Positions 1-14,832 of a stretch of DNA of 14,832 nucleotides are shown here, in pieces. The position numbers and the translations under genes were made by a program. The stretch is from Candidatus Micrarchaeia archaeon. GTDB taxonomy: Archaea > Micrarchaeota > Micrarchaeia > Burarchaeales > JAVZCV01. The stretch is from contig JAVZCV010000026.1 in NCBI GenBank assembly GCA_038874215.1, forward strand, positions 1 through 14,832, given 5' to 3'. The notes under the pieces are model-generated. The model made no database searches and had not been told where the DNA came from. It saw only the letters and a list, made by a program, of their open reading frames with translations. Within the stretch, counting starts at the first letter, position 1; every line of letters begins with the position of its first letter.

Positions 1-3000
1 CCCACGGCTCAAAACCGGTGCTCTTGCAACAATAGAGCATACCATCTTGCTCGTAGCAGTACTCAGTAGAGCAGTATTTCTCGTACGGCTCTAAGCCGCA
101 GTTGTGCCCTCCGTCGGATAATAAAATTATAACCTTCTGGTTATCCGTTACGTTATCGTCCTTCTCTGGGCAACCAAGAACACCACAATCGGGCTGGCAG
201 TTGTAACAATCTTCTTTTGCGGAATCACAAATCGCATCGCCACAAAATCCGCAATCTTTCAAACAATTCTCGGGTGTCTCCGTTGGGCTACATATTCCAT
301 CCCCACACACCACACCGGGCCCTCCCCCACACTCCGATCTCCTGCATGGCAGACAATCCGTACATGATGGACAACTCTCCCCAGCATCACAAACACAATC
401 ATAATCACATCCTGGCCCACCACCCCCACAATCACCCGGGCAGTTCATAGCTGTCTCCCCCAACCCAGGCTCACAAACCCCATTGTTATTACAAGGCGTC
501 CCAGGCCCTCCCCCACACTCCGATCTCCTGCATGGCAGACAATCCGTACATGATGGACAACTCTCCCCAGCATCACAAACACAATCATAATCACATCCTG
601 GCCCACCACCCTGTTGAAGCAACAACCCATTCCACTTTTTTGCTAACATAACGGGTTTAGTTTGAGTGCAAGCAAAACCAGCAGGAAGCCCACTCCAATA
701 GCCCCCGACCCCCAACTCCCCCAAAACAAGTTTTACTGATGCGTTTAGCGCAGCGCCGAGGTTCGTTTCTCCGCTTGTCTGATCAACAAGCCCGTCCAAA
801 ACACCCTCCACATATTCTTTTGAATCATCCGTCGCCATCACAAGCGGCGTTACGGCAGAAGCCTTACAGTTCCTGAATGATACAACACCAAGGTAGTTCC
901 CATTCGGAGTTTTGTTAACAAACTTCTTCGCGGCATCAACCGCATACGTTATCTTGTCCTCCGTTACTGTTCTCATACTGGCAGTCGTATCTATCGTAAG
1001 AACAATATTTGATCTCGTTATCCTCTCAAAATATGCTTCAGCCCTCAAATTCATGTCAAACCATGCGCCCTCAGAAACTTTCTTTTGCTGTTTATCCTCA
1101 AAAAGCCATGCATCCTTCGGGCCAGCCCACTTATACGTTTCTATAACTGAAAGCGGCTTTGCTGTTATCGGTGTGCTGCATATTTGCGCCCAGCCACCCT
1201 GCCACGATACCCAAACTGATGCCCTTCTCGTTTCTCTATGAAACGGTGGAGATTCTATTGTACATTTATGCACTAGGTTGCTTGAAGCAGGTATACTGTA
1301 CTCCGTCCCGGGATCGTCTGGCGTGCATTTTACAAGCAGTTTTGCATTAGAATATGGTGCTTCGCTGTTCAATTGGATATAGAGATTTGTATCAAACGTT
1401 CCCCAGCCAGCGTTGGGCCACGCTGTCATCGTGCATGTTATCGGCTTATCTGTAATCGTTGTGCGGCACACATAGTTTTTCTCATTGGGCAACCTTATTG
1501 TTGCGTTCCCTTCTGGGGCAAAGCCTGCCTGCGCCAAAACCTGTGGGTATGTGCAATCCCTGACAGCAACAGCATGGAAAACATCATTTGGATCTCCCAG
1601 CCCCCACACCATGTAACCGTAATTACTTTCATAATACGGGTCGCTTGGGTTTGTTGGGTCAAACTCCACCATTCTAACCAGCTCTGTTGTACCACCTCTC
1701 GTGCAATTTATCTCGGCGTATATGCCCTTTGCAGGATCGTTGAATTCTGCTTTTAACTCATTCGGTATGTTGTAGAGTTTGTACATCACCCTGCCCACCG
1801 CCTCCCCAGAGAACGTGGTTATGTTCGCCCCGATGCTGCAGAAAGGCTTCGGGGTATATACAACTTTCGGATAATCGCTAACCTTTCCAGTGCAGTTTAT
1901 CGGCAGAAATTTTATTCCCAACTCTTCAAGATATTCAAGAGATGTGTTAGCCCACGTTGTGAAGTTAACAGGTTTTACCTCTATATTCGGGTCCATTGGG
2001 TCTTCAATGACCACTGTCCCAACATACGGATACGTACACCGAAGTTTTGCGTAGATAGGTTTAACAAGGGCGTTTTTTGGAGTGCACTCCGCACACGGCG
2101 GGCAATCAGCAGGGCAGCTCGTGCAGTTTTCAAAGAACTCCATGCCAGAATCACATACTCCGTTCCCGCATGTTGCAGGCGGGACGATGACTTCAACAAT
2201 CTCGCCACTATCCCTGAACGTGCAATCCCCGATACCGCACGTAGTTTTTGGGTTGCATATACCATCGTTGCATACTGTGTCATCGGGATGCGCAGGAATC
2301 GGAGAATTCGTAAATGTGTATTCGCCACTCTGCAATTTTTCATCTTTGTACTCATCATAGTAATAGCACGTCATGTTTATGCGCAGCTTTTTCCCGCTGT
2401 ACTGCCTCGGTATGTCTCTTATCTCCACCCAAGTATCAACACTAAACTCGCCAGTGCCGATATACGGGGGCGTGTATCTATAGTAGTTGAGCGGATAATA
2501 GTAAACGCAGCTTGGTTGTGGAAGCGCCAAATCCCCTATCCCTATGCTCTTCCAGCACTCTGAATTAGGGAAGTTGTACCATATTCTCTCTGGTATATTC
2601 TGTATCCTCGCCCTCGCCGTGTATGTTTTTGTTATATTGACTTGGGGGTAGCTGCAGTTCCGTGCAGCCCAAGCAAGGCGCTCGTTAGGCACATATGTCA
2701 TAACGGATTCTACACCCATATCTGCTGGGTCTTCTACATCACACCATATCATGGCATTCAGAGGCTTATTCACTATATCATCCCCAAGCGCAGGATTTGG
2801 GTAATCCTCTGGCAGATTGCGTATTGTCGCATTAACTACAGTCGTGAATGGCCCGTACTCCCCACCGCCTCCTCCCAGCTCCCCCCATATCCCGCCCAAG
2901 CAAGAATACAATGAGCAGTAGGGCGTATTCGGCGGATAATCCCTAACTTTGCCATTCGCAGAACAAGAAGTTTTAGCGTAATACTCATTCGCAGGAAAAC

Positions 3001-4084
3001 TCAAAACGCCCGATATCATATAGTCTGTTGTGTGCGTAACAAGCGGATATTCGCACTGGATTTTCGCATAGCCACACGTAGGGCATTCCGGGCCTGGGCA
3101 AAGCCTGCTCGGCCATGTTCCATCATCATACCACCAATATTGGTCCCACCAACTCCACCAACAACCACCCATCACAGAATAGTCGGTTCTCGTTAATGCT
3201 ACTTCCCTCCCCTCATCGCTATCGCTGCACTTCATGTTCACTTTAAATTCAGTGTTTTCGTCAAGGTAGCTGTAAGGAGGCAAAGCCCACGCATAAAAAG
3301 TTATCTCCTGCGTTTTCGGGCCAATTAATTCATAAGAAAGGCCCGTAGTCGGGTTGTATGGGAAACTACAAAATGGACCTGGTGGTGAGGAAACCAAAAC
3401 AGCAACATCACACCCGATCGTCTTCAACTGCCCCTCCTCATAATAATCCCTCTCCGCCCTCACCGTATACGTCCTGCCATACTTCACATGCGGGTATGAG
3501 CATATATGCGATGCCTTGCTTTCAAAAAACGGCTCCTCATGCCAACCATCATCTTCGTGGCATTTGAACCGCACCGTTCCATACTCCCCCACATACCTAA
3601 GGGTAGCGGTTATGTTTGACTCATACGGCCCTATCCATCCATTCGGCTTTGCGCCAATAGCACAAGAAGGCTGTACCTTTGGGCTGTCATATACAGGGAA
3701 ATCACATGCAACCCCGTCCGAATCCCACGTTGCCTCCGCGCTCGCCGTGTACAAGGTCTGCTTGCTCACTTCGGGGTATGTGCATGAGCGAGAGGCGTAC
3801 CCTTTCGTATTATCGTTCTGGTCCCTTACTATGTCAACAATCAGGCCTGCCTCTGACTCTGTGCAGCGGATTTTTGCCTGCGTAACGCTTATCGGCAAAT
3901 CCGTAAAATTGACCTTCGCCTGCCATGTGAATTCACCAACATCGGCTATATACCCCCCTTCCTCATCAAAAACGCAGGAGGGAACAGAAAAAGCGAGCGA
4001 AACCATCACGATAACCATGACTGCTTCCCACAGACCCCGAGATAAACAAAAACCTTTCAATACGGAATGCCCCCCTTCTCCCAA
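1..4084 (-). CDS. Giant secreted cysteine-rich surface protein/putative adhesin (>=1361 aa, 3' end outside window): signal peptide, seven 4-Cys repeat domains, VWA domain with Cys-rich insertion
   Basis: Manual translation of the minus strand gives one stop-free frame from the start region to position 2; the ORF track omits it, presumably because no stop is in the window. Start chosen at TTG 4084 (GGGGTGA-N4-TTG, same spacing as other genes here); in-frame alternatives 4114, 4087, 4060, 4018. Signal-like N-terminus (..EAVMVIVMVSLAFS/VPSC). VWA motifs NIVLTIDTTASM (1009-974), GETNLGAAL, KVIILLSDG (136-110). CGDGIC/CGNGVC-type repeats and several N-x-S/T sequons. Confidence 0.92.
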   Translation of the reverse strand, partial: MGEGGHSVLKGFCLSRGLWEAVMVIVMVSLAFSVPSCVFDEEGGYIADVGEFTWQAKVNFTDLPISVTQAKIRCTESEAGLIVDIVRDQNDNTKGYASRSCTYPEVSKQTLYTASAEATWDSDGVACDFPVYDSPKVQPSCAIGAKPNGWIGPYESNITATLRYVGEYGTVRFKCHEDDGWHEEPFFESKASHICSYPHVKYGRTYTVRAERDYYEEGQLKTIGCDVAVLVSSPPGPFCSFPYNPTTGLSYELIGPKTQEITFYAWALPPYSYLDENTEFKVNMKCSDSDEGREVALTRTDYSVMGGCWWSWWDQYWWYDDGTWPSRLCPGPECPTCGYAKIQCEYPLVTHTTDYMISGVLSFPANEYYAKTSCSANGKVRDYPPNTPYCSLYSCLGGIWGELGGGGGEYGPFTTVVNATIRNLPEDYPNPALGDDIVNKPLNAMIWCDVEDPADMGVESVMTYVPNERLAWAARNCSYPQVNITKTYTARARIQNIPERIWYNFPNSECWKSIGIGDLALPQPSCVYYYPLNYYRYTPPYIGTGEFSVDTWVEIRDIPRQYSGKKLRINMTCYYYDEYKDEKLQSGEYTFTNSPIPAHPDDTVCNDGICNPKTTCGIGDCTFRDSGEIVEVIVPPATCGNGVCDSGMEFFENCTSCPADCPPCAECTPKNALVKPIYAKLRCTYPYVGTVVIEDPMDPNIEVKPVNFTTWANTSLEYLEELGIKFLPINCTGKVSDYPKVVYTPKPFCSIGANITTFSGEAVGRVMYKLYNIPNELKAEFNDPAKGIYAEINCTRGGTTELVRMVEFDPTNPSDPYYESNYGYMVWGLGDPNDVFHAVAVRDCTYPQVLAQAGFAPEGNATIRLPNEKNYVCRTTITDKPITCTMTAWPNAGWGTFDTNLYIQLNSEAPYSNAKLLVKCTPDDPGTEYSIPASSNLVHKCTIESPPFHRETRRASVWVSWQGGWAQICSTPITAKPLSVIETYKWAGPKDAWLFEDKQQKKVSEGAWFDMNLRAEAYFERITRSNIVLTIDTTASMRTVTEDKITYAVDAAKKFVNKTPNGNYLGVVSFRNCKASAVTPLVMATDDSKEYVEGVLDGLVDQTSGETNLGAALNASVKLVLGELGVGGYWSGLPAGFACTQTKPVMLAKKWNGLLLQQGGGPGCDYDCVCDAGESCPSCTDCLPCRRSECGGGPGTPCNNNGVCEPGLGETAMNCPGDCGGGGPGCDYDCVCDAGESCPSCTDCLPCRRSECGGGPGVVCGDGICSPTETPENCLKDCGFCGDAICDSAKEDCYNCQPDCGVLGCPEKDDNVTDNQKVIILLSDGGHNCGLEPYEKYCSTEYCYEQDGMLYCCKSTGFEPW
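318..425. repeat. 108-bp perfect direct repeat, copy 1 (encodes a GGGPGCDYDCVCDAGESCPSCTDCLPCRRSECGGGP module on the minus strand)
   Basis: Base-by-base identical to 504-611; offset 186 nt, so in frame. Confidence 0.97.
504..611. repeat. 108-bp perfect direct repeat, copy 2
   Basis: Identical to 318-425; separated by 78 nt encoding a different 4-Cys module (CNNNGVCEPGLGETAMNCPGDC). Confidence 0.97.
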
Positions 4085-4088
4085 CACC

Positions 4089-4607
4089 TCACCCCAAACC
4101 AAAACCCACCACATCAAGAGCGTTCCTCGGCCCGTTTATCTCATATACCCTTGTGCCATTATGCACTATATAAACGTATGTTGTTCCATTCATGCCTGCT
4201 ATGCTGGCATAAAATACGCGCAATCCACCATACAGGTAGCTTGCCGTTTTAATGTTATCGTACTTCCCTTCCTTCTCACGCCTGAACATCTCTTGCTTGT
4301 TTGCATAACTTGCAGCATCCTCTATATTCCTAAACTCATATACCCTCTCATAGATTAGCGGAGTTTCATCAATTTTGTAGATTCTCTGCAACGCCCGCAC
4401 AATACCTGCCCTCTTCATGCTACTTGTTAAGTTAAACTCCTCATAGTTTCCCTCCATCCTACCGTATGGAGTAGAGCCACCCTGCAAAACCTTCTCCCCC
4501 TCACTGTATTCAGCTTCAACCCCTTGCTGGGTGCTCACCATCAAATAAACAGCCAAAGCGAATAAAACAAGAAGGAACACAAGCGCAGCGCCTTCACCAA
4601 AATTCAT
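4089..4607 (-). CDS. Hypothetical protein with N-terminal membrane anchor/signal (172 aa)
   Basis: Hydrophobic N-terminus (AALVFLLVLFALAVYLMV); ATGA overlap with the upstream response regulator stop; GGAGG upstream; ends 4 nt before the giant ORF start. Confidence 0.85.
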   Translation of the reverse strand: MNFGEGAALVFLLVLFALAVYLMVSTQQGVEAEYSEGEKVLQGGSTPYGRMEGNYEEFNLTSSMKRAGIVRALQRIYKIDETPLIYERVYEFRNIEDAASYANKQEMFRREKEGKYDNIKTASYLYGGLRVFYASIAGMNGTTYVYIVHNGTRVYEINGPRNALDVVGFGLG

Positions 4608-5824
4608 CGTGTTCCCTCCTCACCCCCCTCATTGCGGGGTTTGGAAAGCGAGAGCCTAACCCCTCTTGCATCCCGTGTTATTGATACATCCGCATCGGTG
4701 CCCCCAAGCATTTCAAGCAACTCCTGATAGGTGTAAGAGCCTATATCTTTAATCCCCGCATCTTTCCCAATACCCCTCCTTTCCAGTATCTCGCCACGCT
4801 TTGCCAGCAGTTTCTCAGGCGGTACAAACTCATAACTTATAGCGAGCCTGTTTTTTGCTCCTTCATGTGCGTCAAACATTCCCTCAATACCTTCTGCGAA
4901 ATCAACAACCATCTTCTCCTGGTATATAAACGGCAGAACCCTCTCAAACTCCTCAATCACATCCGTTACCATTGCCTCAATCTTGCCTTTGCAACCACCA
5001 ACGATAAACTCGCCGTTTCCCACATAGCCGACGAATGCACATGCCTCCTTCCACCTTCCCGCTTTCTCTTGTATTATCTGCGAGACAAGCCTCACTATTA
5101 CCTCCGCAGCACGCTCCCCATGCTCAACAGCATACATGCCAATGTTCTCTATTCTTACCCTGCATATTTCAAAGTTCCCCTCCCCTATCAATTCCTCCAT
5201 CTCCCTTGAAATTCTCTCCTCATCGGGCAAATCTATCAGAGGGTCAAACCTTTTGCCCTTCTTTTTTAGAAATATGTTTACGAGCGAGCGAAGCTCTTTT
5301 GGGTCAAAGGGTTTTCTTATGTAGTAATCTGCACCCAACCTTATTCCTTCAAAGCGATTTTTCGCAGCATCAGCGGCAGAAACGATAACCACCGTAATAT
5401 CTTTGAGAGCTACGTCTGTCTTTATCGCTTGGCATATCTCAAGCCCATTCATACCCGGCAGCATAAGATCCAGAATTACAAGGTTAGGCTTATGCTCCCT
5501 CACCATCTTCATTCCTTCATTGCCATCATATGCCTGCAGAATTTCAAAGCCCCTCCCCAAAGAGAGCTTTATCAGCCTATTTATGTCCCTGTCATCCTCA
5601 ACGATAAGAACCTTCATCGGCTTCTCCTTTTCAAGCGCGTAGTACATTTCTTGGCTGCCGACGATGCGTTTTTCAATAGCGCCAGATTCAAGCAAGCGCA
5701 AAAGGGCGTTATCAATTCTCTCTTTATGCTCTGGCAATAGCTTAACAATCTCGTTTTTAGATAGCTCATCGCTTTTCTCAAATACCTGCAATATAAGGGA
5801 TTCAACCATTAACGGCTCGCCCAT
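4604..5824 (-). CDS. Response regulator: N-terminal winged-HTH-like domain, receiver (REC) domain, degenerate GGDEF-like domain (406 aa)
   Basis: REC motifs KVLIVEDD, LVILDLMLPGMNG (phospho-acceptor Asp codon 5468-5470), VSA, GADYYIRKPF. C-terminal part follows the GGDEF template (DPLIDLPD ~ DxLTGLPN; FVGYVGNGEFIV ~ FVGHIGGDDFVV). N-terminal ~60 aa has helix-turn-helix plus wing pattern. GGGTGA-N4-ATG ribosome site. Confidence 0.9.
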   Translation of the reverse strand: MGEPLMVESLILQVFEKSDELSKNEIVKLLPEHKERIDNALLRLLESGAIEKRIVGSQEMYYALEKEKPMKVLIVEDDRDINRLIKLSLGRGFEILQAYDGNEGMKMVREHKPNLVILDLMLPGMNGLEICQAIKTDVALKDITVVIVSAADAAKNRFEGIRLGADYYIRKPFDPKELRSLVNIFLKKKGKRFDPLIDLPDEERISREMEELIGEGNFEICRVRIENIGMYAVEHGERAAEVIVRLVSQIIQEKAGRWKEACAFVGYVGNGEFIVGGCKGKIEAMVTDVIEEFERVLPFIYQEKMVVDFAEGIEGMFDAHEGAKNRLAISYEFVPPEKLLAKRGEILERRGIGKDAGIKDIGSYTYQELLEMLGGTDADVSITRDARGVRLSLSKPRNEGGEEGTR

Positions 5825-5895
5825 GCAATCACCCTTCTCACATTCATCTCAACCTATTTATATTAGAACTATATTAATCTATTTGGGACCAGCCA
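5825..5895. promoter_or_regulatory. Compact divergent promoter region between response regulator and histidine kinase
   Basis: 71-bp AT-rich gap with TATA-like elements: TATAAAT on the minus strand (5862-5856) and TATATTAAT on the plus strand (5870-5878), the latter starting 26 nt before ATG 5896, suggesting a leaderless kinase mRNA. Confidence 0.55.
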
Positions 5896-8556
5896 ATGGA
5901 AAGACCAATCACAGAACTTGAAAGCATAGAATCAATCCTGAACGACATACCAGAAAACATACTCATCGTAGCAGACGGTAGGATAACCTTTATGAACAGG
6001 TTTGCGATAGCCGAATTCGGGAATCTCGTAGGAAAAGCGCACCCATCCCTTTTCGGCTTTGTGCAGAATGCCCCAATGGAAGAGCGTAAGGAGAACAGCA
6101 ACCACATCAGAATCGGCTCAAAATACTACGAGCCCTGCTTCTCCCCCTTTCTCGCCAACAGCAAGCTGGTTATATTGCGTGATATTACGCAAAAAATTTT
6201 GCTTGAAAAGAAGAACTCAGAAAACAGCAAAAGGCTCATTCTTTTAAACGAGCTTGCAAAGCTTTTCACGCTACGGCTTTCAGAAGACGAACTGCTCTTG
6301 CGCCTACCTCTAGAACTCAGGAAAGTGATAAATTTTACAAGCTCGCAGATTTTTCTGATAGAGAACGACGCCTGCATCTCTATTGAACTTGAAACGCAAA
6401 AAAAGGCGCCATTCACGCTTGCGGGCAGCTCTGCTGCATACTGCGTTGAAGCAAAAAAACCCTTCCTCCAAAACAACGTTGGCGCATACTCCGAGTTCTA
6501 CGATCTGCGCGAAAAGCATGAGCAAGGAATCCGCTCAATCCTTATCGCACCGCTCTTAATTGCAGACAAGCCGATAGGCGCTCTTGTTTTAAATAGCACA
6601 TCAGAAAATGCGTTTTCAGAGGACGACGCGCATTACCTGCAGCTCATCGCCGGTGATGTTGCGAGCGCTCTTGAAAACGCTCGCCTTTTCAAGCATGCCC
6701 GCATCTCTGAAAAACTCCTCCGCGTTCTTTTTGAGAAATCAACGGATGCGATATTCGTTTTTGACTCATCTACTGGCGAGATTTTAAGCGCGAACGAAAT
6801 GGCTGAGAAAATAACAGGCATCCCGCGCCCAGAACTCCTAAAAAAAACATTCCAGAGTTTGTTCGGCAGGCGTAGCATAGGAGAGCTTGGGCTCATGAAG
6901 GAGCATGTTCTCAGCCTTGAGATGCTTCCAGACTCTGATGCGCCGCGCATAGTTGAAATCCACACAAGCGAAATGGAAATAGACGGTAGAAAAATAACAA
7001 AGGCATCATGCATAGACGTAACGAAGCGAGTTTTGGCCGAAGCAAACTACAAGGAAATAATTGAGAATATCCCTACGATAGTTTTTTCTTTGAACAGCAG
7101 GAGCGAGCTTGTCTCAATAAACGAAGAAGTGACATGCCTGCTCGGTTATTCAAAAGAAGAGCTTTCTGGCGTTTTGTTCCCGAAAATAATACACCCAGAG
7201 GACTTCCGCATGTTTAGCAATGCAATAACGGAGTTGCAGGGAGGCAAAAAAACAGTGAGCAATCTCGTAGTTCGCGTTTTTGCCAAAAATGATGAGCTCA
7301 GATACTTTGAGATGCATCTGCGGGGGAAATACAACGCAAAAGGAGAGCTCATCGGAGTAAACGGGATTATGTCTGACATAACAGAGAAGAAAAAAGCATA
7401 CGAGCACGAGCAGATGCTCGCAAAGATAATAACCAACTCATCGGATGCGATATACTGGATAGACGGTTCAGGCACAGTCCGTTTCTGGAATGTAGGAGCA
7501 GAGAAAATATTCGGCTACACGAGCGAAGAGATGCTCGGCGGGAGCATACTCCTTACCTACCCATACGAATCCCGCCACGAGCTTACCGAAATGATAAACG
7601 AGCTTGGGGCTGGGAAAACGATAGACGGGCTTGAGACAACGAGAATAAGCAAGAGTGGGGAAGAGGTAATGGTAAAGCTATACGCAAGCGCGATAAAAGA
7701 TGAGGACGGAAGGACGTTGGGCTACCTGCATATCTGCCGTGATATGTCATCGCAGAAAAAGATTGAGGAGGGCGAGGAGGCAAGGCGCAGGCTTGAGCAG
7801 AAAACGCAAGAGCTCATGGAGCTTAACAGAATGAAATCAGAGTTCATCTCGGATGTTTCGCACGAGTTCAAGACTCCACTCACAAACATACACGGATATG
7901 CGCGCCTTCTATACGATGGGGAGTTCGGCGAGCTAAATGAAGAGCAGATGGAGTTCGTGAGGATAATACAGAATGAGTCTGAGCGGCTCGCCCGCTTGAT
8001 AAACGACGTGCTTGAACTCTCCCGCATAGATGCAGGAAAGATAACTCTGAAAATGCAGGAGCTTGACATCAGAGACCTCATAGACAAATGCTCGTGCAAA
8101 TCAATGGCGGACGAAAAGGGCCTATACGTGAAATGGGAGATAAGCGAAGATGTCCCGAAAATAGAGGCAGACCCAGACCGAATAGCGCAGGTTCTCATAA
8201 ACCTAATATCAAACGGGATAAAATTCACGGAAAAAGGAGGCGTGACGGTTAGGATTTTTGTAGCTGGGAAAAACAAGATACAGGTTGATGTGAGCGATAC
8301 GGGAATAGGCATAGCGCCAGAGCATAGGGACAAAATATTCAGGCGTTTCTACCAAGTTTATAGGGGCGGGGATGAAAAACGAAAGGGCACAGGGCTCGGC
8401 CTTACGATAGTGAAAGAGATAGTGAGGCTCCATGGCGGAAAAATCTGGGTAAATTCAGAAGTCGGCAAGGGCTCAACATTCAGCTTTACACTCCCCATAA
8501 GGAGAAAGCAGAAGCAACCGAAAACAGAAGAAAAAAATGCCGAAACGGGGGCGTAG
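5896..8556 (+). CDS. Soluble multi-sensor histidine kinase (PAS-GAF-PAS-PAS-PAS-HisKA-HATPase_c), 886 aa
   Basis: H-box [11 protein letters not shown] (His codon 7861-7863), N-box [15 protein letters not shown]1 [18 protein letters not shown]2 GTGLGL; GAF motif [33 protein letters not shown] motifs ([22 protein letters not shown]). No obvious TM helix. Confidence 0.96.
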
Positions 8557-8619
8557 TGGTGCTGTTTGCAAACGATTATATACCCCCAAGCACCTAATTT
8601 TTATGCGGCCAGTGGTAGC

Positions 8620-10002
8620 ATGAAAATGCAAAGAAATAATCCCCAGCGTGCCCTCTTCATATTTCCAGCGTTGCTCATCCTTCTCTCCTCACTCTCCTTT
8701 TCTGCAGATTTGCGGGACTATTTCAAGGCTGATGAAAAATACTCTCTTGAAAACTTCGGCGAATACCAACTTGTGAGGATTGGTGGCCCAATCGCATTCA
8801 TAATAGACGGCAAAGGCATCGCCATTGAGAATGCGGCACTGATAGAGGAAATCATATCTGAATATGTGCATGAGAAGTCAATAAACGAATCTACTCTAAC
8901 AACCCGTGAGCTGAACGAGCTCGCATACCTGATTGGAAAGTTCAACGAATCTCGTGGCGGGGAGCTTGAATGCCGTTTTTACACCGGCACAGACAGGTTC
9001 CCGTGCGATGATAGGGGGGGATGCCAGTCCTCTTGCTACACCCCAGTATGCAAGGATGCGATGATGGGCTATGGCTGGGGCTTCCTTGATGCAGTCGCAA
9101 ACTTCTCAAAGCAAAGCCGCGTTATTGACGAAAAGGTTTCTAAACTCATCTTCGTTCTCAGAAACGGCGGGCTTGACGATGCAGAATCCGCATCATCCAT
9201 CCTCAAAGAAATACGCAATACGTCTTCCTCTCTATCAAGCAACCCACTATTTACGCACACATTCCTCTTCTGCCCAAGCCCAAAATACGATATGCAGTCA
9301 CTTAGCGAAGCCGAGAGAACAATAAACAACGCCATCCAGAGAATAAAGATGCTCACAAAACCGCGCCTTTATGCAAACGAACTTGCGGACATGGGAAGGG
9401 AGCGGAATTCCTTCAGAAAAAGCGTTGAGGCATGCCGAGATATGGCTGCGCTCTCCGAGAAAAATATCGCCGATTTGGAAAACAGGAGCAGGGACATGCC
9501 TTCTTTTGTTGAGATAAGTGGAGAAATAACAATCCTCAGACAGTCGCTGAGAAAGCTTGAGGAAGAATGCAAGGGATACGATTTCAGGAGTGCGAACAGA
9601 ACTTATTCCAGCCTTAACGAAATGGCAAACCACACAGCCGAGAAGCTGGAAACATTCGCATCGCTTTACCAAAACATAACCGCTCTCTACAACGAAACTC
9701 TTGCGCTTCTTGAAAGCGCAAACTCATCAGTAAAGGAGCAGGTTTCAGTATCTCTTTCCCTAATCGCCAGAGACCTCCCAACAGCAACGACGATAGATGA
9801 CCTAATGAATATAAAGAATGCCCTGAATGAGAACATTGCGAAGCTCCGCTCTCTACCCCAAGCCAGCGCTTCGGGAACGGTTGAAGGGCAGAAGAATCCT
9901 ATGGTTATCCAGGCTTTATTAGTAATCCTCCTCCTCATCCTCATCTCTACATTCGCCTACCACCGTTGGAGGAGGAAAAGGTATCCCCTTGAATATGTGT
10001 AA
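8620..10002 (+). CDS. Hypothetical single-pass membrane protein with extracellular Cys cluster and helical/coiled-coil stalk (~460 aa)
   Basis: Start placed at ATG 8620 (or 8626) because a signal peptide follows (RALFIFPALLILLSSLSFS/A); Cys cluster ECRFYTGTDRFPCDDRGGCQSSCYTPVC; about ten N-x-S/T sequons; C-terminal TM (ALLVILLLILISTFAY) then basic tail HRWRRKR. Confidence 0.87.
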   Translation: MKMQRNNPQRALFIFPALLILLSSLSFSADLRDYFKADEKYSLENFGEYQLVRIGGPIAFIIDGKGIAIENAALIEEIISEYVHEKSINESTLTTRELNELAYLIGKFNESRGGELECRFYTGTDRFPCDDRGGCQSSCYTPVCKDAMMGYGWGFLDAVANFSKQSRVIDEKVSKLIFVLRNGGLDDAESASSILKEIRNTSSSLSSNPLFTHTFLFCPSPKYDMQSLSEAERTINNAIQRIKMLTKPRLYANELADMGRERNSFRKSVEACRDMAALSEKNIADLENRSRDMPSFVEISGEITILRQSLRKLEEECKGYDFRSANRTYSSLNEMANHTAEKLETFASLYQNITALYNETLALLESANSSVKEQVSVSLSLIARDLPTATTIDDLMNIKNALNENIAKLRSLPQASASGTVEGQKNPMVIQALLVILLLILISTFAYHRWRRKRYPLEYV

Positions 10003-10025
10003 TTTCATAGGAAGCGAAGCGATAC

Positions 10026-10142
10026 ATATATTAACATTCTATTCCATAATCAAACCGCGGTGGTTTCATTATTCCACAAAGAGAAAAAGAATAGCGCGTT
10101 TCGCTTTTCTCTACTTCTGCAAATCTCTTGGAGGTTGGTTTT
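10026..10142 (+). promoter_or_regulatory. Putative cimA promoter and structured 5' leader
   Basis: TATA-like ATATATTAA at 10026-10034; inverted repeats at 10046-10072 and 10080-10112; GGAGG at 10130-10134. Confidence 0.45.
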
Positions 10143-11609
10143 ATGAAAAGGGTTAGGATACTAGACACAACACTGCGAGACGGGGAGCAGACGCCAGGCA
10201 TGTCGCTCACGCCAGAAAAGAAAGTCGTAATAGCGAAGAAGCTTGACGAGCTCGGCGTTGACATAATAGAAGCGGGCTCTGCGATAGCGAGCGCAGGAGA
10301 AAGGGATGCGATAAAGAAAATAGCAAACCTTGGCCTCAACGCAGACGTTGCAAGCTTTTGCAGGATTCTGAGAGGGGACATAGATGCAGCGCTCTCGTGC
10401 GATGTTGATATGATATGTCTCGTTGTTTCAACATCAGACCTTCACATAGAGAGAAAGCTTAGGAAAACTAGGGAGCAGGTTGTGGAGATGACAATTGATT
10501 CGTTAAACTATGCAAAGGAGCACGGTTTGAAGGTTGAGGTTCTCGCCGAAGATGGGAGCAGGACCGATAAAGAATTTCTGCGAGACATATTCCTTAAGTG
10601 CGAGCAGAACAAGGCTGATGCGGTATGCGTTTGCGACACCGTTGGAGTAATGACACCAGAGCGCACCGAAGAGCTCTACAAGTTCCTCCTTGAAAAGATA
10701 AAACTACCGCTTGCCGTCCATTGCCATAACGACCTCGGGCTTGCGGTTGCGAACTCTCTCGCTGCTTTCAGGGCTGGTGCGAGCGAGATACACTGCACCG
10801 TTAATGGGTATGGGGAGCGGACGGGAAACGCAGCGCTTGAGGAGGTTGTAGTAGGGCTTGAATACTTTTATGGAGTAAAAACAGTGAAAACGAAAATGCT
10901 TGCAGAGGTATCAGAGCTTCTTGAACTTTTGACTGGCGTTAAGGTTGCACCCAACAAGCCCGTGGTAGGGAAAAACGCATTTGCTCACGAATCTGGCATA
11001 CATGTTGACGGAATACTGAAAGACGCATGCACATACGAGCCGATAACACCAGAGATGGTTGGGCAGAAGCGCAGGTTTGTTTTAGGAAAGCATTCTGGGA
11101 GAAAATCAATAGAGATGAAGCTGAACGAGATGGGAATAAAGGTTAGCGAGGAGCAACTGCGGTGGATAGTTGACAAGGTTAAGGAGGTTGGCGATACAGG
11201 GAAGGAAGTTACCGATGCGGATTTCACACTTATAGTTTTCACAGCGCTCGGAATAGAGGATAAGCCAAAAGTAAAGCTGAAGGAGCTCGTAACAGTAACG
11301 GGAACGACTATAACCCCAACCGCTTCTGTGAGATTGGAAATAGACGGAAAAACAGTGGTTTCTGCTGGCACTGGAAACGGGCCAGTGGATGCAGCAATAA
11401 ATGCGATAGAGAATGCACTTGGGGGGACGGGTGTAGAGCTCATAGGCTACCATGTTGATGCCATAACGGGCGGAACGGATGCTCTCGTTGATGTGAAGAT
11501 ACAGCTCCGAAAGGATGGCAGGGAAATTTCTGCCGCTGGTGCGGGCACCGACATAGTCCGCGCTAGCGTTGAGGCTATGTTGAGGGGGCTAAACCTCCTT
11601 TTGAAGTAG
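10143..11609 (+). CDS. cimA: (R)-citramalate synthase CimA, archaeal type (LeuA/DRE-TIM family), 488 aa
   Basis: [19 protein letters not shown] (as recalled for methanogen CimA, versus EAGFP in LeuA), [31 protein letters not shown]-terminal regulatory domain [26 protein letters not shown] 10143 follows GGAGG. LeuA activity not excluded. Confidence 0.88.
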
Positions 11610-11610
11610 C

Positions 11611-11808
11611 TCATTTCTTCGCATTTGGAAACACGAGCAGCTTCATCTTCCCTATTCTCATAGTGTAAAAAACATTCCCGTTTTTGCTTTCGTTTTTCCA
11701 TAGCGCACCCACATTCGTGTACTTCGTGTTTCCCTCAGCATCAACTTCGGGCTGGACAACCCTGAAGTCTGGCTGGGGCTTCTCTTCTTCAGCCTCAATC
11801 TCATCCAT
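11611..11808 (-). CDS. Small hypothetical protein (65 aa), DUF736-like motif
   Basis: Start reassigned to ATG 11808 (GGTGA-N4-ATG; TTTTTAA box at 11848-11842). Sequence PDFRVV..VGALWKNESKNGNVFYTM resembles the PD(Y/F)RV..IGAAW..S..G..Y pattern I recall for DUF736. Confidence 0.75.
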   Translation of the reverse strand: MDEIEAEEEKPQPDFRVVQPEVDAEGNTKYTNVGALWKNESKNGNVFYTMRIGKMKLLVFPNAKK

Positions 11809-11908
11809 AAAATCACCACACCCAAAAAGAATTAACCAACTTAAAAAGCATGCGAAAGGGCGATTTTCCAGTGATACCAATTTAAAATCCATCCTGCATA
11901 ATATAACT
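11809..11908. promoter_or_regulatory. Divergent promoter region (small gene / LarA-like gene)
   Basis: TTTAAAA at 11881-11887, starting 28 nt before ATG 11909 (plus strand); TTTTTAA on the minus strand near 11842-11848. Confidence 0.5.
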
Positions 11909-13654
11909 ATGCAAGCCCACAGACCTAACTCTAACTCAAACAGGAAAATGAATGCCCGCAAACCAAGTTTTCCGCATGCAACCAACGATATGTGGAATAA
12001 GAGGCGCATCACATTAGACTACGGAGCTGGCAAGGGAAACGAGCTTGAACTCCTCGTCCCAGGGCATGCAGTGATGATTAAGAGCAGGGGCTTTAAGGAC
12101 AAGCCAACGATTGAAAACCCACCAGCAGTTATTGAAGAAGAGCTCCGCATTCAGCTATTCCCTAAGAACTCCCTCGTTCCACGTTCCCTCCTCGTGCTCA
12201 TACCAGACAACACAAGGCCGCCAACATCTGCGCGCGCGGGCCTTCATGCCCTTCTTTCAATCCTCGCCGACCCAGAGCTCCGCCCAGAAAAGACTACCAT
12301 ACTCGCCGGCGGCGGCACCCACAAACCAATGAGCGAGCAGGAGCTGCGCGAATTTCTTGGAGCAGAGCTTTTTGAGAGGCTGAAGGCATGCGCAAAAGAA
12401 TACAACATAACAATCGGCAAAGACGGGCTTCCGATTATGCAGCACGATTGGAAAGACGAGAATTCACTAAAAAAGTTCAATACGAGTTTTGAGGGAAGGA
12501 ATGTCGTAATGTCCGCAAACAAACTCCTCTTTGAGCACGAGGCTCTTCTCAACATAGCCGATGTTGACCTTCATCCATACATGGGAGCAAGCGGCAGCAT
12601 ATACAAAATGTGCATAGTCGGAGTAGGCGGTCCAGAAAACATTTACCTCACCCACTCCCCCTCCCTCCTTCTTGACGAGGCGACATATCCTGGGAGGATA
12701 ACGGGAAACCGTTTCTTCAACGCGGTAAAAGAAGCAGCCCTTTCCCTATTTGAGGCTATGCGAAGGGAAGGCATGCTAAGGTACGAGCCGCTTTCAGTAA
12801 ATCTCGTTTGCGAGCATGGAGAAAAAACGCGCGTTGTTGATGTTCTCGTAGGACCAGCGGCACAGAAGTGGGAAGAAAGCGCAGATATAGTTTTCACTTC
12901 ATACACTGGCATGATTGACAGGGGAGTGCACATAATAATCGGAGGTGTTGACAAGGGCAAGGACCAAGCCCTTGACCAAGGGGCGAGGCTGATAGACTTC
13001 TTCATACGCCTGCACGACCCACACGGCAACCCCATTCTACTCGGCGAAACGCTGCACCGCGTTGCCATTCTATTCACGCCATGCAGCAAAGCAGAATACA
13101 GCGGCGGAATAGCAACTCCTTCAAGCTTCAAGCACCTTGAAAAGCTGAGAGAGATAGTGAATGCCAACATAGACCAGATAAACTCTGAAATCTCGCGCAT
13201 GAGCGATGCCCGAGAGGCACAGGCAAAAATCCATGACTTCAAGCAGCGTGTTCTTGATTCTTGGGAGGCATACCTAAACCAAGTCTATGAAGCAGAGCGG
13301 GGGTTCGGCGGCGGTGGCCAACGTGCCCTCCGCATGCTCTACATAATGCGCAACTTCGGCCTCTTCATCGTAGGCACTCCAAACAGAAAAGTCGTTGATT
13401 ATCTTGCCCAGATAAGCCCGCCAGTAAAGCTCCACCCAGAAGCGCAGCGTTCATTCGAACAGGCTCGCGTTGATCCTTTGCTCCTCGGAGTAAAGGGTGT
13501 TTTGCTCAGAAACGGAAGAAAAAACGAGGATGCGATGAGTGCGGTTGATGTAGCAGTGAGATACTTTGAATGGGCTCGTGGCGGCGATCCGATAGAGCCA
13601 GAAATCGTTATAGTGCCAAACATGCACATACTGCCAAAGCGTGCCCATCGCTAA
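11909..13654 (+). CDS. Lactate racemase (LarA)-family nickel-pincer-type enzyme, divergent (~581 aa)
   Basis: Motifs LIPDNTRP, AGGGTHKPM, QHDW, DLHPYMGASGSIYK, IYLTHSP, GRITGNRF, DQALDQGAR align in order with LarA motifs (DxTRP, TGTHR, NHD, EPHFFAGFSGGRK, NHS, GxLxGNP, DxNxYQxxK). Start moved from 11684 to ATG 11909 (alt 11948) to avoid overlap with the opposite-strand gene. Confidence 0.85.
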   Translation: MQAHRPNSNSNRKMNARKPSFPHATNDMWNKRRITLDYGAGKGNELELLVPGHAVMIKSRGFKDKPTIENPPAVIEEELRIQLFPKNSLVPRSLLVLIPDNTRPPTSARAGLHALLSILADPELRPEKTTILAGGGTHKPMSEQELREFLGAELFERLKACAKEYNITIGKDGLPIMQHDWKDENSLKKFNTSFEGRNVVMSANKLLFEHEALLNIADVDLHPYMGASGSIYKMCIVGVGGPENIYLTHSPSLLLDEATYPGRITGNRFFNAVKEAALSLFEAMRREGMLRYEPLSVNLVCEHGEKTRVVDVLVGPAAQKWEESADIVFTSYTGMIDRGVHIIIGGVDKGKDQALDQGARLIDFFIRLHDPHGNPILLGETLHRVAILFTPCSKAEYSGGIATPSSFKHLEKLREIVNANIDQINSEISRMSDAREAQAKIHDFKQRVLDSWEAYLNQVYEAERGFGGGGQRALRMLYIMRNFGLFIVGTPNRKVVDYLAQISPPVKLHPEAQRSFEQARVDPLLLGVKGVLLRNGRKNEDAMSAVDVAVRYFEWARGGDPIEPEIVIVPNMHILPKRAHR

Positions 13655-13697
13655 TACAACGAGCAACAAAATATAAACCAAACTGAGATTTACTTAT

Positions 13698-14159
13698 ATG
13701 GCTTCTGGCGAAACGATACATGAAAGGTCCGCCGGGATAATCGTTTATAATATTGATGATTGTGTTGTCTCCTACCTCCTTCTCCACTACGGTGCTGGGC
13801 ACTGGGATTTCCCAAAAGGGCACATTGAGGAAAACGAGGATGAGAAAAGCGCAGCAATACGAGAGACGAGTGAGGAGACGGGCATTTCAAACTTAGAGTT
13901 TGTGGATTTCAGGGAAAAGCTTTCCTACTGGTATTGGAAGGGGAAAGAGCGGAGCTTTAAGGAAGTGGTTTTCTTTCTCGCCCGTACGGGCACGAAAGAA
14001 GTCAGGCTTTCGCATGAACACATAGGCTACATCTGGCTTCCATACGAGTCGGCACTAAAAAAGCTTACATACGACACCGCAAAAGAAATGTTAAAGAAGG
14101 CTTACAATCGGCTCGTTGAGCTTCGGGTTGAGAAAGGTCCGCTCTCAAAATTTTTTTAA
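13698..14159 (+). CDS. Nudix hydrolase, probable asymmetrical Ap4A (bis(5'-nucleosyl)-tetraphosphatase) type, 153 aa
   Basis: Nudix box GHIEENEDEKSAAIRETSEETGI; SAGIIVY, YLLLHY, HWDFPKGH, LSHEH..Y.WL pattern of NUDT2-like enzymes; ATATAAA at 13671-13677 suggests a leaderless transcript. Confidence 0.92.
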   Translation: MASGETIHERSAGIIVYNIDDCVVSYLLLHYGAGHWDFPKGHIEENEDEKSAAIRETSEETGISNLEFVDFREKLSYWYWKGKERSFKEVVFFLARTGTKEVRLSHEHIGYIWLPYESALKKLTYDTAKEMLKKAYNRLVELRVEKGPLSKFF

Positions 14160-14168
14160 TTTGTTTTT
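14151..14168 (+). terminator. Possible archaeal oligo-T terminator after the Nudix gene
   Basis: TTTTTTTAATTTGTTTTT spanning the stop codon; overlaps a TTTTTAAATA TATA-like element for the next gene. Confidence 0.35.
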
Positions 14169-14206
14169 TAATATACATAAATGACTTGCAGGTTGGGGGT
14201 GCCGAA

Positions 14207-14485
14207 TTGGCTGAAAAACGCATTCATCTCATAATCAGCGGAATAGTCCAAGGCGTTTTTTTCAGGGCGCATACTCGCGAGAAGGCGAGGCAGCTCGGGC
14301 TCGTTGGCTGGGTGATGAACAGGGAAGATGGAAGCGTTGAATGCGTTGCAGAGGGGGAGGAAAGCGCACTTCGCTCCTTTCTTGAATGGTGCAAGGTCGG
14401 GCCTCCTTCTGCACGTGTGAGCGATGTAAAAGTAGAGCGGGAAGAGCCAAAGGGAGAATTCTCATCATTTTTTATACGCTACTGA
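14207..14485 (+). CDS. acyP: Acylphosphatase (92 aa)
   Basis: GIVQGVFFR, GWVMNREDGSVE, GPPSARV, F..F.IRY signature; TTG start after GGGGGTG ribosome site. Confidence 0.95.
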   Translation: MAEKRIHLIISGIVQGVFFRAHTREKARQLGLVGWVMNREDGSVECVAEGEESALRSFLEWCKVGPPSARVSDVKVEREEPKGEFSSFFIRY

Positions 14486-14752
14486 ATCGCTACACAAGGA
14501 CAACTTTAAAAACCTCATTTTTTCCAAATATCCAACATACTCCCTATTCAAATAGAAAGCGGCCACCTTTTTCCGCACTTTCCCAACATCCGCCATAATA
14601 TTCCTTCTCGCATATAAAATAAGCAATCCAATCTCTCATTCCCTATCCGCATACCCCCCCACTTTTTTAGCCCTTTTGGGGTATGCCACAAACTATTAAA
14701 AAAACAAGCCATTATATTTCTCTGTTTGCCAAACAAAGCATTTTCACCCGCT
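14486..14752 (+). promoter_or_regulatory. Putative CRISPR leader
   Basis: About 267 bp, AT-rich, homopolymer runs, no convincing ORF, TATA-like elements (14613-14620, 14694-14704, 14712-14719), directly abutting a CRISPR-like repeat. Confidence 0.6.
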
Positions 14753-14832
14753 GTTAGAAAACCAGTCCCGATGGAAAGGGAACTGTGACCTCATTTAACC
14801 TCCTCCACAACCATGTTTTTAGCCGTTAAGTT
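14753..14832 (+). CRISPR. Probable start of a CRISPR array truncated by the window edge: repeat 14753-14789, spacer 14790-14829, first 3 nt of next repeat 14830-14832
   Basis: 37-mer GTTAGAAAACCAGTCCCGATGGAAAGGGAACTGTGAC: GTT start, TCCC/GGGA stem, 3' octamer ACTGTGAC resembling ATTG(A/C)(A/G)AC tags. Followed by 40 nt of unrelated sequence and then GTT. Only one full repeat is visible and no cas genes are in the window. Confidence 0.7.

Follow-up and report, generated by a model that had tools for sequence, protein, structure and literature searches.

We analysed a window of 14,832 bases (bases 1-14832 of the 15126 on contig C26) from a Micrarchaeia genome bin (1.13 Mb, 38 contigs, 91% complete), in which a sensor histidine kinase and a response regulator are encoded divergently and the regulator gene is followed closely by genes for a 172-amino-acid (aa) anchored protein and a large secreted protein. 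The reading that we favour, with a probability of about 0.55, is that the locus consists of two units joined in one genome, i.e. a conserved signalling unit (unit A, the kinase and the regulator) and a rare surface unit (unit B, the two envelope proteins), and that the surface genes are expressed from one transcript under the control of the regulator. Gene order, domain content, the loss of cyclase residues in the regulator, the conservation of unit A and the rarity and independence of unit B are what the data show; the reading further predicts that phosphate passes from kinase to regulator, that the regulator binds DNA and controls its own promoter, that the genes are co-transcribed and that the large protein acts in adhesion.

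The only public DNA run that contains the window stretch is a hot-spring metagenome. Close relatives of the regulator carry the labels Candidatus Micrarchaeota or Micrarchaeia, so that the organism is a DPANN archaeon; when the stretch was first interpreted from its letters alone (the sequence-only reading), the locus had been called archaeal and DPANN-type archaea had been cited for their very large surface proteins. That reading had also placed four genes here, and our open reading frame (ORF) calls give the same genes, strands and positions: 2..4117 (minus strand, open at the contig end), 4089..4607 (minus, 172 aa), 4604..5824 (minus, 406 aa) and 5896..8556 (plus, 886 aa). Their identities as surface protein, anchored protein, regulator and kinase, and the tight coupling of the genes, are confirmed.

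The kinase and regulator form a conserved pair

The two genes of unit A and the domains of their products are listed below in window coordinates, with the source of each assignment.

5896..8556, plus strand: soluble sensor histidine kinase, 886 aa (Pfam, NCBIfam)
6394-6675, plus strand: GAF domain of the kinase (Pfam)
6715-7758, plus strand: three PAS domains of the kinase (Pfam)
7831-8037, plus strand: HisKA domain of the kinase, with His656 (Pfam)
8170-8502, plus strand: HATPase_c domain of the kinase (Pfam)
4604..5824, minus strand: response regulator, 406 aa
5630-5824, minus strand: winged helix-turn-helix of the regulator, aa 1-65 (family matches, conserved N-terminal domain)
5255-5617, minus strand: receiver domain (REC) of the regulator, aa 70-190 (Pfam aa 72-182), with E76/D77, D119, S149 and K171
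4820-5242, minus strand: GGDEF-like domain of the regulator, aa about 195-335, signature GNGEF, predicted to be catalytically dead
4640-4762, minus strand: small conserved C-terminal domain of the regulator, aa about 355-395 (family alignment)

The HisKA and HATPase_c domains of the kinase score 80.1 and 111.9 bits, both over the Pfam cut-offs, and His656 sits in an HEFKTP motif. The maximum Kyte-Doolittle value is 1.83, and no 19-residue stretch is hydrophobic enough for a transmembrane segment, which bears out the earlier description of the kinase as soluble. About five sensor domains had been attributed to it; four of these are recognised (GAF and three PAS), and the fifth, at aa about 20-100, is PAS-like by reading only. 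In the regulator, the receiver domain scores 90.5 bits (Response_reg), and an alignment of 45 family members shows no variation at E76, D77, D119, S149 and K171. The N-terminal domains of these 45 proteins match Penicillinase_R (20 members), MarR_2 (9) and GntR (5). The genome as a whole contains two REC matches, and its HisKA matches are one strong hit, the window kinase, and one weak one.

Of 40 relatives, 22 have the regulator, and among 200 other genomes of the class it occurs in 76 (a count that takes in one unpublished genome, G098). Its distribution is strongly family-dependent, i.e. it occurs in 30/31 genomes of family f13, 20/20 of f17 and 8/9 of f12, and in 0/21 of f15 and 0/27 of f22. 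In 19 of 20 loci a kinase homolog lies beside the regulator, no more than about 3 kb away (18 divergent, 1 tandem). In a further set of 29 loci, one per genus and each fetched with 3.5 kb of upstream sequence, a kinase lies within those 3.5 kb in 21; in f13 and f17 it stands upstream of the regulator on the same strand and not divergently. It is this adjacency, in 19/20 and 21/29 loci, that points to phosphotransfer from kinase to regulator. In the favoured reading the cytoplasmic multi-PAS/GAF kinase would autophosphorylate on His656 and pass the phosphoryl group to Asp119 of the regulator.

By its distribution and domain content the kinase and regulator are thus a conserved signalling pair of Micrarchaeia, and one already catalogued in 2018. 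The census of that year describes an archaeal regulator with REC and an inactivated GGDEF domain, called 'WspR-like', in Ca. Micrarchaeum acidiphilum, and assigns a single two-component system, with its HTH counted, to the first complete Micrarchaeota genome (Galperin et al. 2018, PMC5847659). The regulators in its available sections are close to the one studied here in lineage, in combining REC with an inactive GGDEF domain and in occurring as few or single kinase-regulator pairs per genome; it is a census of proteins, and those sections describe no gene neighbourhood and no link to a surface protein. A 2026 paper on active archaeal GGDEF proteins (PMC13725321) does not contain the string 'Micrarchae' in its main text. 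The sequence-only reading had called the whole arrangement one not recognised from archaea. This does not hold for the pair; what is new is the surface cassette, and that it stands behind the regulator.

The GGDEF-like domain of the regulator

We used a structural model and a family profile to examine the C-terminal half of the regulator. The AlphaFold2 model (predicted local distance difference test, pLDDT, 82.5; predicted template modelling score, pTM, 0.81) found WspR, PleD and DgcR as its top matches in a Foldseek search of the PDB, with E-values of 8e-13 to 3e-11. A profile of the C-terminal half, built from 18 loci (L032 was excluded because of a stop codon), aligned to GGDEF domains of known structure, 6eib (E 0.0066) and 4zve (E 0.04), and a single-sequence search of the PDB sequences with the same region gave chance-level matches only (E about 2). 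Among the 45 family members 20 match PF00990 weakly, with a best E of 6.7e-6; the window's own regulator has no PF00990 match at E <= 1. When aligned to 6eib, the family profile has 'lrienldeyae' opposite 'DIDNFKLIND' and 'Gegef' (GNGEF in the window) opposite GGEEF, and the signature is variable across the family. Because the metal-binding and guanine-binding positions (roles which we take these positions to have, along with substrate binding) and the signature are replaced in this alignment, the domain appears to have kept the GGDEF fold and lost the catalytic residues. Family matches, model, Foldseek search and profile alignment together uphold the earlier winged-helix and GGDEF-like assignments.

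The sequence-only reading had drawn a parallel with Pseudomonas LapA, in which a GGDEF/cyclic di-GMP circuit controls a giant adhesin. What speaks for such a circuit here is that the regulator has a REC-GGDEF fold like that of WspR and PleD and that a surface protein with a VWA domain is encoded downstream. However, the replaced residues and the missing PF00990 match just described count against it, and so does a search of the 91%-complete genome for GGDEF (PF00990), EAL (PF00563) and PilZ (PF07238), which gave 0 matches at E <= 0.1 and was not extended to a LapG-type protease. The surface protein, moreover, bears an N-terminal Sec-type signal peptide. The parallel is therefore not borne out, and we regard this model as largely refuted and exceedingly improbable. 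The likeness to WspR (3bre, 3i5a), PleD (1w25, 2v0n) and DgcR (6zxb), the best Foldseek matches, lies in a receiver followed by a GGDEF fold. These three proteins make cyclic di-GMP, whereas the window regulator has lost the signature and the substrate and metal positions and has an extra N-terminal winged helix; the TM-scores of 0.24-0.28 are low because the domain arrangement differs.

A dead GGDEF fold could still have a function of its own, i.e. the regulator could act through this domain and the C-terminal domain by binding a protein or nucleotide, and so control pilus or secretion machinery post-translationally, with only a minor part for the winged helix. Many residues that are invariant among the 45 members lie in these two domains (including R245, S248, Q249, Q252, F273, F299 and Q302) and point to a selected, non-catalytic function, and the 1.13-Mb genome has seven matches to T2SSE/PilB-type ATPases (on contigs C2, C5, C8, C12, C13, C16 and C27) on which such control might act. 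Archaeal two-component signalling also seems, as far as the available sections of the census go, to act mainly via protein-protein interactions (Galperin et al. 2018, PMC5847659). On the other hand, the winged helix is kept family-wide and matches DNA-binding-type families (MarR_2, GntR and Penicillinase_R) in many members. We therefore consider a mainly post-translational role improbable, and retain the reading in which the regulator would act on DNA.

The surface unit is rare and independent

The features of unit B are as follows.

2..4087, minus strand: large secreted surface protein, >1361 aa, truncated by the contig start, with signal peptide
1136-3982, minus strand: tandem array of seven Cys-containing repeats, each a beta-sandwich of about 100 aa, aa 46-994 of P0003 (repeat hidden Markov model, HMM)
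2-1030, minus strand: VWA domain, from aa about 1030 (Pfam VWA_2)
about 170-670, minus strand: Cys-rich insert splitting the VWA domain, absent from the relatives P0125 and P0126
315-425 and 501-611: copies of a 111-nucleotide (nt) direct repeat within the Cys-rich insert (repeat finding)
4089..4607, minus strand: 172-aa protein, anchored by a single membrane helix at the N-terminus, with about 140 aa as its outside domain

The large protein contains 6% Cys and 16 N-glycosylation sequons. Its VWA domain scores 36.8 bits against the VWA_2 cut-off of 27, and alignment with P0125 and P0126 shows that the second half of the domain resumes past the Cys-rich insert. The two copies of the direct repeat in this insert are 99% identical and 186 nt apart; Tandem Repeats Finder reported nothing on 1-4200. 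If the metal ion-dependent adhesion site (MIDAS) is taken to be DxSxS ... T ... D, the window protein has D-T-T-A-S (DxTxS) at the first position, and the Asp, the last Ser, the Thr (in G-x-T-N) and the second Asp (in S-D-G) are invariant in the three full-length relatives (alignment A2). A surface protein of >1361 aa with a VWA domain, as first described, is supported in domain and length, with the qualification that the gene is truncated by the contig end; its missing C-terminus was not found on any other contig of the bin.

An iterated HMM found seven copies of a repeat of about 100 residues in the large protein, and two relatives have seven each. Repeat 1 was modelled with 19 of the 21 copies as input (two partial copies were left out); the model is an eight-strand all-beta domain with a pLDDT of 80.5. 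With this model a Foldseek search of the PDB found nothing at E <= 0.001, and generic immunoglobulin-like (Ig-like) domains headed the list. Judged from its sequence and model, the repeat is a previously undescribed extracellular Cys-containing Ig-like domain. An exhaustive HMMER search of 1.84 billion representative proteins returned 6 relatives only; a word-based search with the large protein found only the protein itself, and a profile search with alignment A2 of the genome contigs found no relative. P0125 (1496 aa) and P0126 (1625 aa) have the whole architecture in common with the large protein and continue for about 230 aa past the VWA domain with no membrane anchor. Full-length relatives measure 1496-1627 aa, so that the protein is better called large than giant, the word used before. 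Three of the six relatives (P0127, P0128 and P0130; 625-959 aa, on other archaeal contigs) carry the repeat behind N-termini that are pilin-like by reading, which suggests that they are large pilin-like adhesins built from the repeat domain.

The 172-aa protein starts with MNFGEGAALVFLL and has a single N-terminal hydrophobic helix (Kyte-Doolittle 2.77). Archaeal type IV pilins begin with a basic residue, Gly/Ala and Gln, followed by a hydrophobic helix; this class III signal peptide motif is absent here, whereas the genes that follow the regulator in family f13 do encode it. The protein has no Pfam match, and searches of the 40 relatives' genomes and of a collection of 5.8 billion proteins found no relative, only the protein itself. 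Its ESM Atlas structure resembles the PknH_C sensor fold with a TM-score of 0.56-0.58, a lead only.

One relative locus of the large protein was fetched (L059). Two cassettes lie there in tandem; in one the anchored protein has 188 aa and the large protein 1627 aa, in the other they have 152 and 1499 aa, and in each the small and the large gene overlap at their junction. One of the large proteins has an additional Laminin_G_3 domain. The cassettes close a series of genes on one strand (986-17716 of L059) that consists of a PilB-type ATPase (T2SSE), a KaiC-like ATPase, three pilin-like ORFs and then the two cassettes. The 188- and 152-aa proteins are homologous to each other (E 3e-25). Compared with them, the 172-aa protein gave a BLASTP E of 0.008 over 35 residues with one and no match with the other, and a hhalign probability of 5.9%; what the three have in common is their position before the large gene and their anchored build. 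Because L059 has tandem pairs beside pilus genes with no kinase or regulator within 25.8 kb, we read the small anchored protein and the large VWA protein as forming a cassette of their own, one that seems to be linked to pilus genes elsewhere. Unit B would then be a rare, lineage-specific cassette of an anchored 172-aa protein and a Sec-exported seven-repeat protein with a predicted metal-dependent VWA domain.

Probable coupling of the surface genes to the regulator

The regulator stop and the start of the 172-aa gene overlap as ATGA, as the sequence-only reading had it, and the stop codon of the 172-aa gene is at 4091-4089. Three starts are candidates for the large gene, i.e. GTG 4087 (1-nt gap), TTG 4084 (4-nt gap, the start of the 1361-aa form on record) and TTG 4060 (28-nt gap). 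We prefer TTG 4060 because 26 residues then precede the conserved 'PSCVF', compared with 20 in P0126 and 25 in P0125; the 4-nt gap given before belongs to one of the other two candidates. From the ATGA overlap and a gap of at most 28 nt we infer that a single transcript most likely covers the genes for the regulator, the anchored and the adhesin-like protein.

The 71-bp divergent spacer reported between the kinase and regulator genes is present, and contains the following elements.

5825..5895, both strands: divergent spacer, 71 bp, with back-to-back TATA-like boxes
5857, plus strand: TATA-like box TTTATATT
5877 and 5864, minus strand: TATA-like boxes TTAATATA and AATATAAA, respectively

Across the genome TATA-like words peak 20-40 nt upstream of start codons, and paired TATA-like boxes also stand 5' of the regulator gene in relatives. 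Inspection of the spacers of 20 relatives by eye revealed no shared operator, just these paired boxes. Counts of predicted sigma-70 promoters and intrinsic terminators did not exceed those in shuffled sequence, and these models are not applicable to archaea. The transcript would start at this bidirectional promoter, probably controlled by the regulator itself via its winged helix (autoregulation), and kinase input would in this way set the amount of adhesin-like protein at the surface. Signal-controlled attachment is, on these grounds, plausible.

Regulators and surface genes in other families

In 14 of 15 f13 loci a pilin-like gene of 176-305 aa follows the regulator on the same strand, at a distance of -35 to +31 nt; 11 of these calls were made by motif and 3 by eye, and L086 is the exception. 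Locus L043 has the same arrangement, and in it and the f13 loci (L078-L092) the pilin-like gene is often followed by genes for a secreted product (about 278 aa) and a further protein (about 230 aa). A pilin-like gene behind the regulator occurs in 0 of 11 f17 loci, and no locus of the window's own order has one. The window genome does have pilin-like genes and genes for a 275-aa partner, on contigs C1 and C10. Elsewhere in this genome, a weak T2SSE match (C12 27097-27495) lies about 2 kb from a VWA-like match (C12 29513-30049).

The regulator thus precedes surface genes in two unrelated arrangements, and relatives of the cassette lie by pilus genes; this raises the odds of a functional theme and is not proof of one. 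The pilin-like N-termini on distant relatives of the repeat domain lend the theme further indirect support. More tentatively, the one conserved two-component system of Micrarchaeia could be a dedicated switch for surface attachment structures, with different lineages plugging different modules in directly behind the regulator, in f13 a pilin-like operon and in the window the membrane anchor and the VWA adhesin with its new Ig-like Cys repeats; we think this possible and rather doubtful.

Functional link or chance neighbours

Several observations weigh against a functional link between the two units. The four-gene arrangement occurs in one genome only, the sole representative of its family (f1) in the sample. 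Homologs of the 172-aa or the large protein were found in 0 of the 20 regulator loci (tblastn, phmmer); in the second set of 29, where up to four ORFs downstream were compared for each locus, the count is likewise 0. The kinase-regulator pair recurs widely in relatives, but the surface genes adjoin it in none of these 49 loci. The sequence-only reading had itself named a pair that never co-occurs with the surface gene in relatives as evidence against its case, and this is largely what we find. Within the window's own order there is no co-oriented surface gene behind the regulator, and no kinase or regulator accompanies the cassettes within the 25.8 kb of L059. Inside the 172-aa gene, 87-114 nt 5' of the start of the large gene, there is a perfect TTTATATA at 4174-4167 (minus strand), and three T5 runs lie at 4052-3968, near that start; an internal promoter or partial termination at the large gene is therefore possible.

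The surface cassette may accordingly have landed behind the regulator by chance, with a promoter of its own or constitutive read-through accounting for its expression and with the regulator's real targets elsewhere, an explanation that we hold to be a serious one and distinctly less probable than the favoured reading. Besides the 0/49 count, the independent cassettes of L059 and the internal TATA-like word and T runs, it gains from the genes 3' of the regulator, which vary widely among relatives and are often housekeeping genes. In the 20-locus set the downstream neighbour is convergent in 13 loci, and some of the 7 co-oriented ORFs look like artefacts of a crude ORF caller. The internal word itself can be read in more than one way. 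Per base, TTTATATA is 7-fold rarer in coding than in non-coding DNA of the genome. One perfect sense-strand copy lies in each of the regulator and 172-aa genes, two in all against about 0.06 expected at the genome's coding density. Both fall on triplets of aromatic/aliphatic codons, the copy at 4174-4167 on Val-Tyr-Ile and that at 4930-4923 on a conserved Phe-Ile-Tyr motif of the regulator.

However, four points tell against chance. The ATGA overlap and the gap of at most 28 nt are typical of translational coupling. There is no T5 run on the coding strand from 5824 to 4053, i.e. from the start of the regulator to that of the large gene. The internal word at 4174-4167 stands farther upstream than the 20-40 nt before start codons at which such words peak in this genome. 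Finally, f13 independently places the regulator before pilin-like genes, and because the link recurs in this other family the operon-like link in the window gains some support. What survives of the earlier interpretation is thus, in partly supported form, an operon-like link of a regulator gene to a surface cassette in one genome.

Neighbouring genes

The gene for a 478-aa protein (8566..10002, plus strand) begins 9 nt 3' of the kinase gene. Its product has a signal peptide and a C-terminal membrane anchor, no Pfam or NCBIfam match, and no relative among the neighbours of the pair in other genomes. With this gene coupled to the kinase side, lineage-specific envelope proteins would therefore flank the conserved pair on both sides. 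Further along, a 656-aa protein (11684-13654, plus strand) matches just the LarA N-terminal domain (aa 167-326); it scores well under every NCBIfam racemase cut-off and has a long N-terminal extension for which we have no explanation.

Comparison with known systems

In bacteria the PilS-PilR pair controls the pilin gene pilA; PilR is an NtrC-type sigma-54 activator and PilS is membrane-bound. The window resembles this system in having a kinase-regulator pair next to a surface gene that it presumably controls, and f13 even has a pilin-like gene directly behind the regulator. It differs in that its regulator is of the winged helix-REC-dead-GGDEF type, its kinase is soluble and its downstream genes do not encode pilins. 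A second comparison is with the pilus-linked VWA adhesins, i.e. PilY1 of Pseudomonas and the Gram-positive pilus tip adhesins RrgA and GBS104. Here the likeness is that of a large secreted protein with Ig-like repeats and a VWA domain with residues at the MIDAS positions, whose relatives are encoded beside pilus genes; the difference is that no sequence relation is detectable outside the VWA domain and that no sortase or pilin motif was seen in the large protein, the C-terminus of which is missing.

Implications

Cultivated DPANN archaea need contact with a host cell. One published study reports that the molecular details of host recognition remain open and that thin filaments seen on a Micrarchaeon 'could represent archaeal pili'. 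The repeats of the large protein represent a new extracellular domain that has very few relatives and is paired with VWA domains or with pilin-like N-termini. The value of the locus is that of a hypothesis and not of a demonstrated mechanism, given genomic evidence and an arrangement found in one genome. A reduced genome with essentially one kinase-regulator pair, placed before surface genes, nonetheless offers a testable handle on regulated attachment. If the broader idea of a dedicated switch is true, these host-dependent archaea would display their host-binding structures according to an intracellular signal read by a multi-PAS/GAF kinase.

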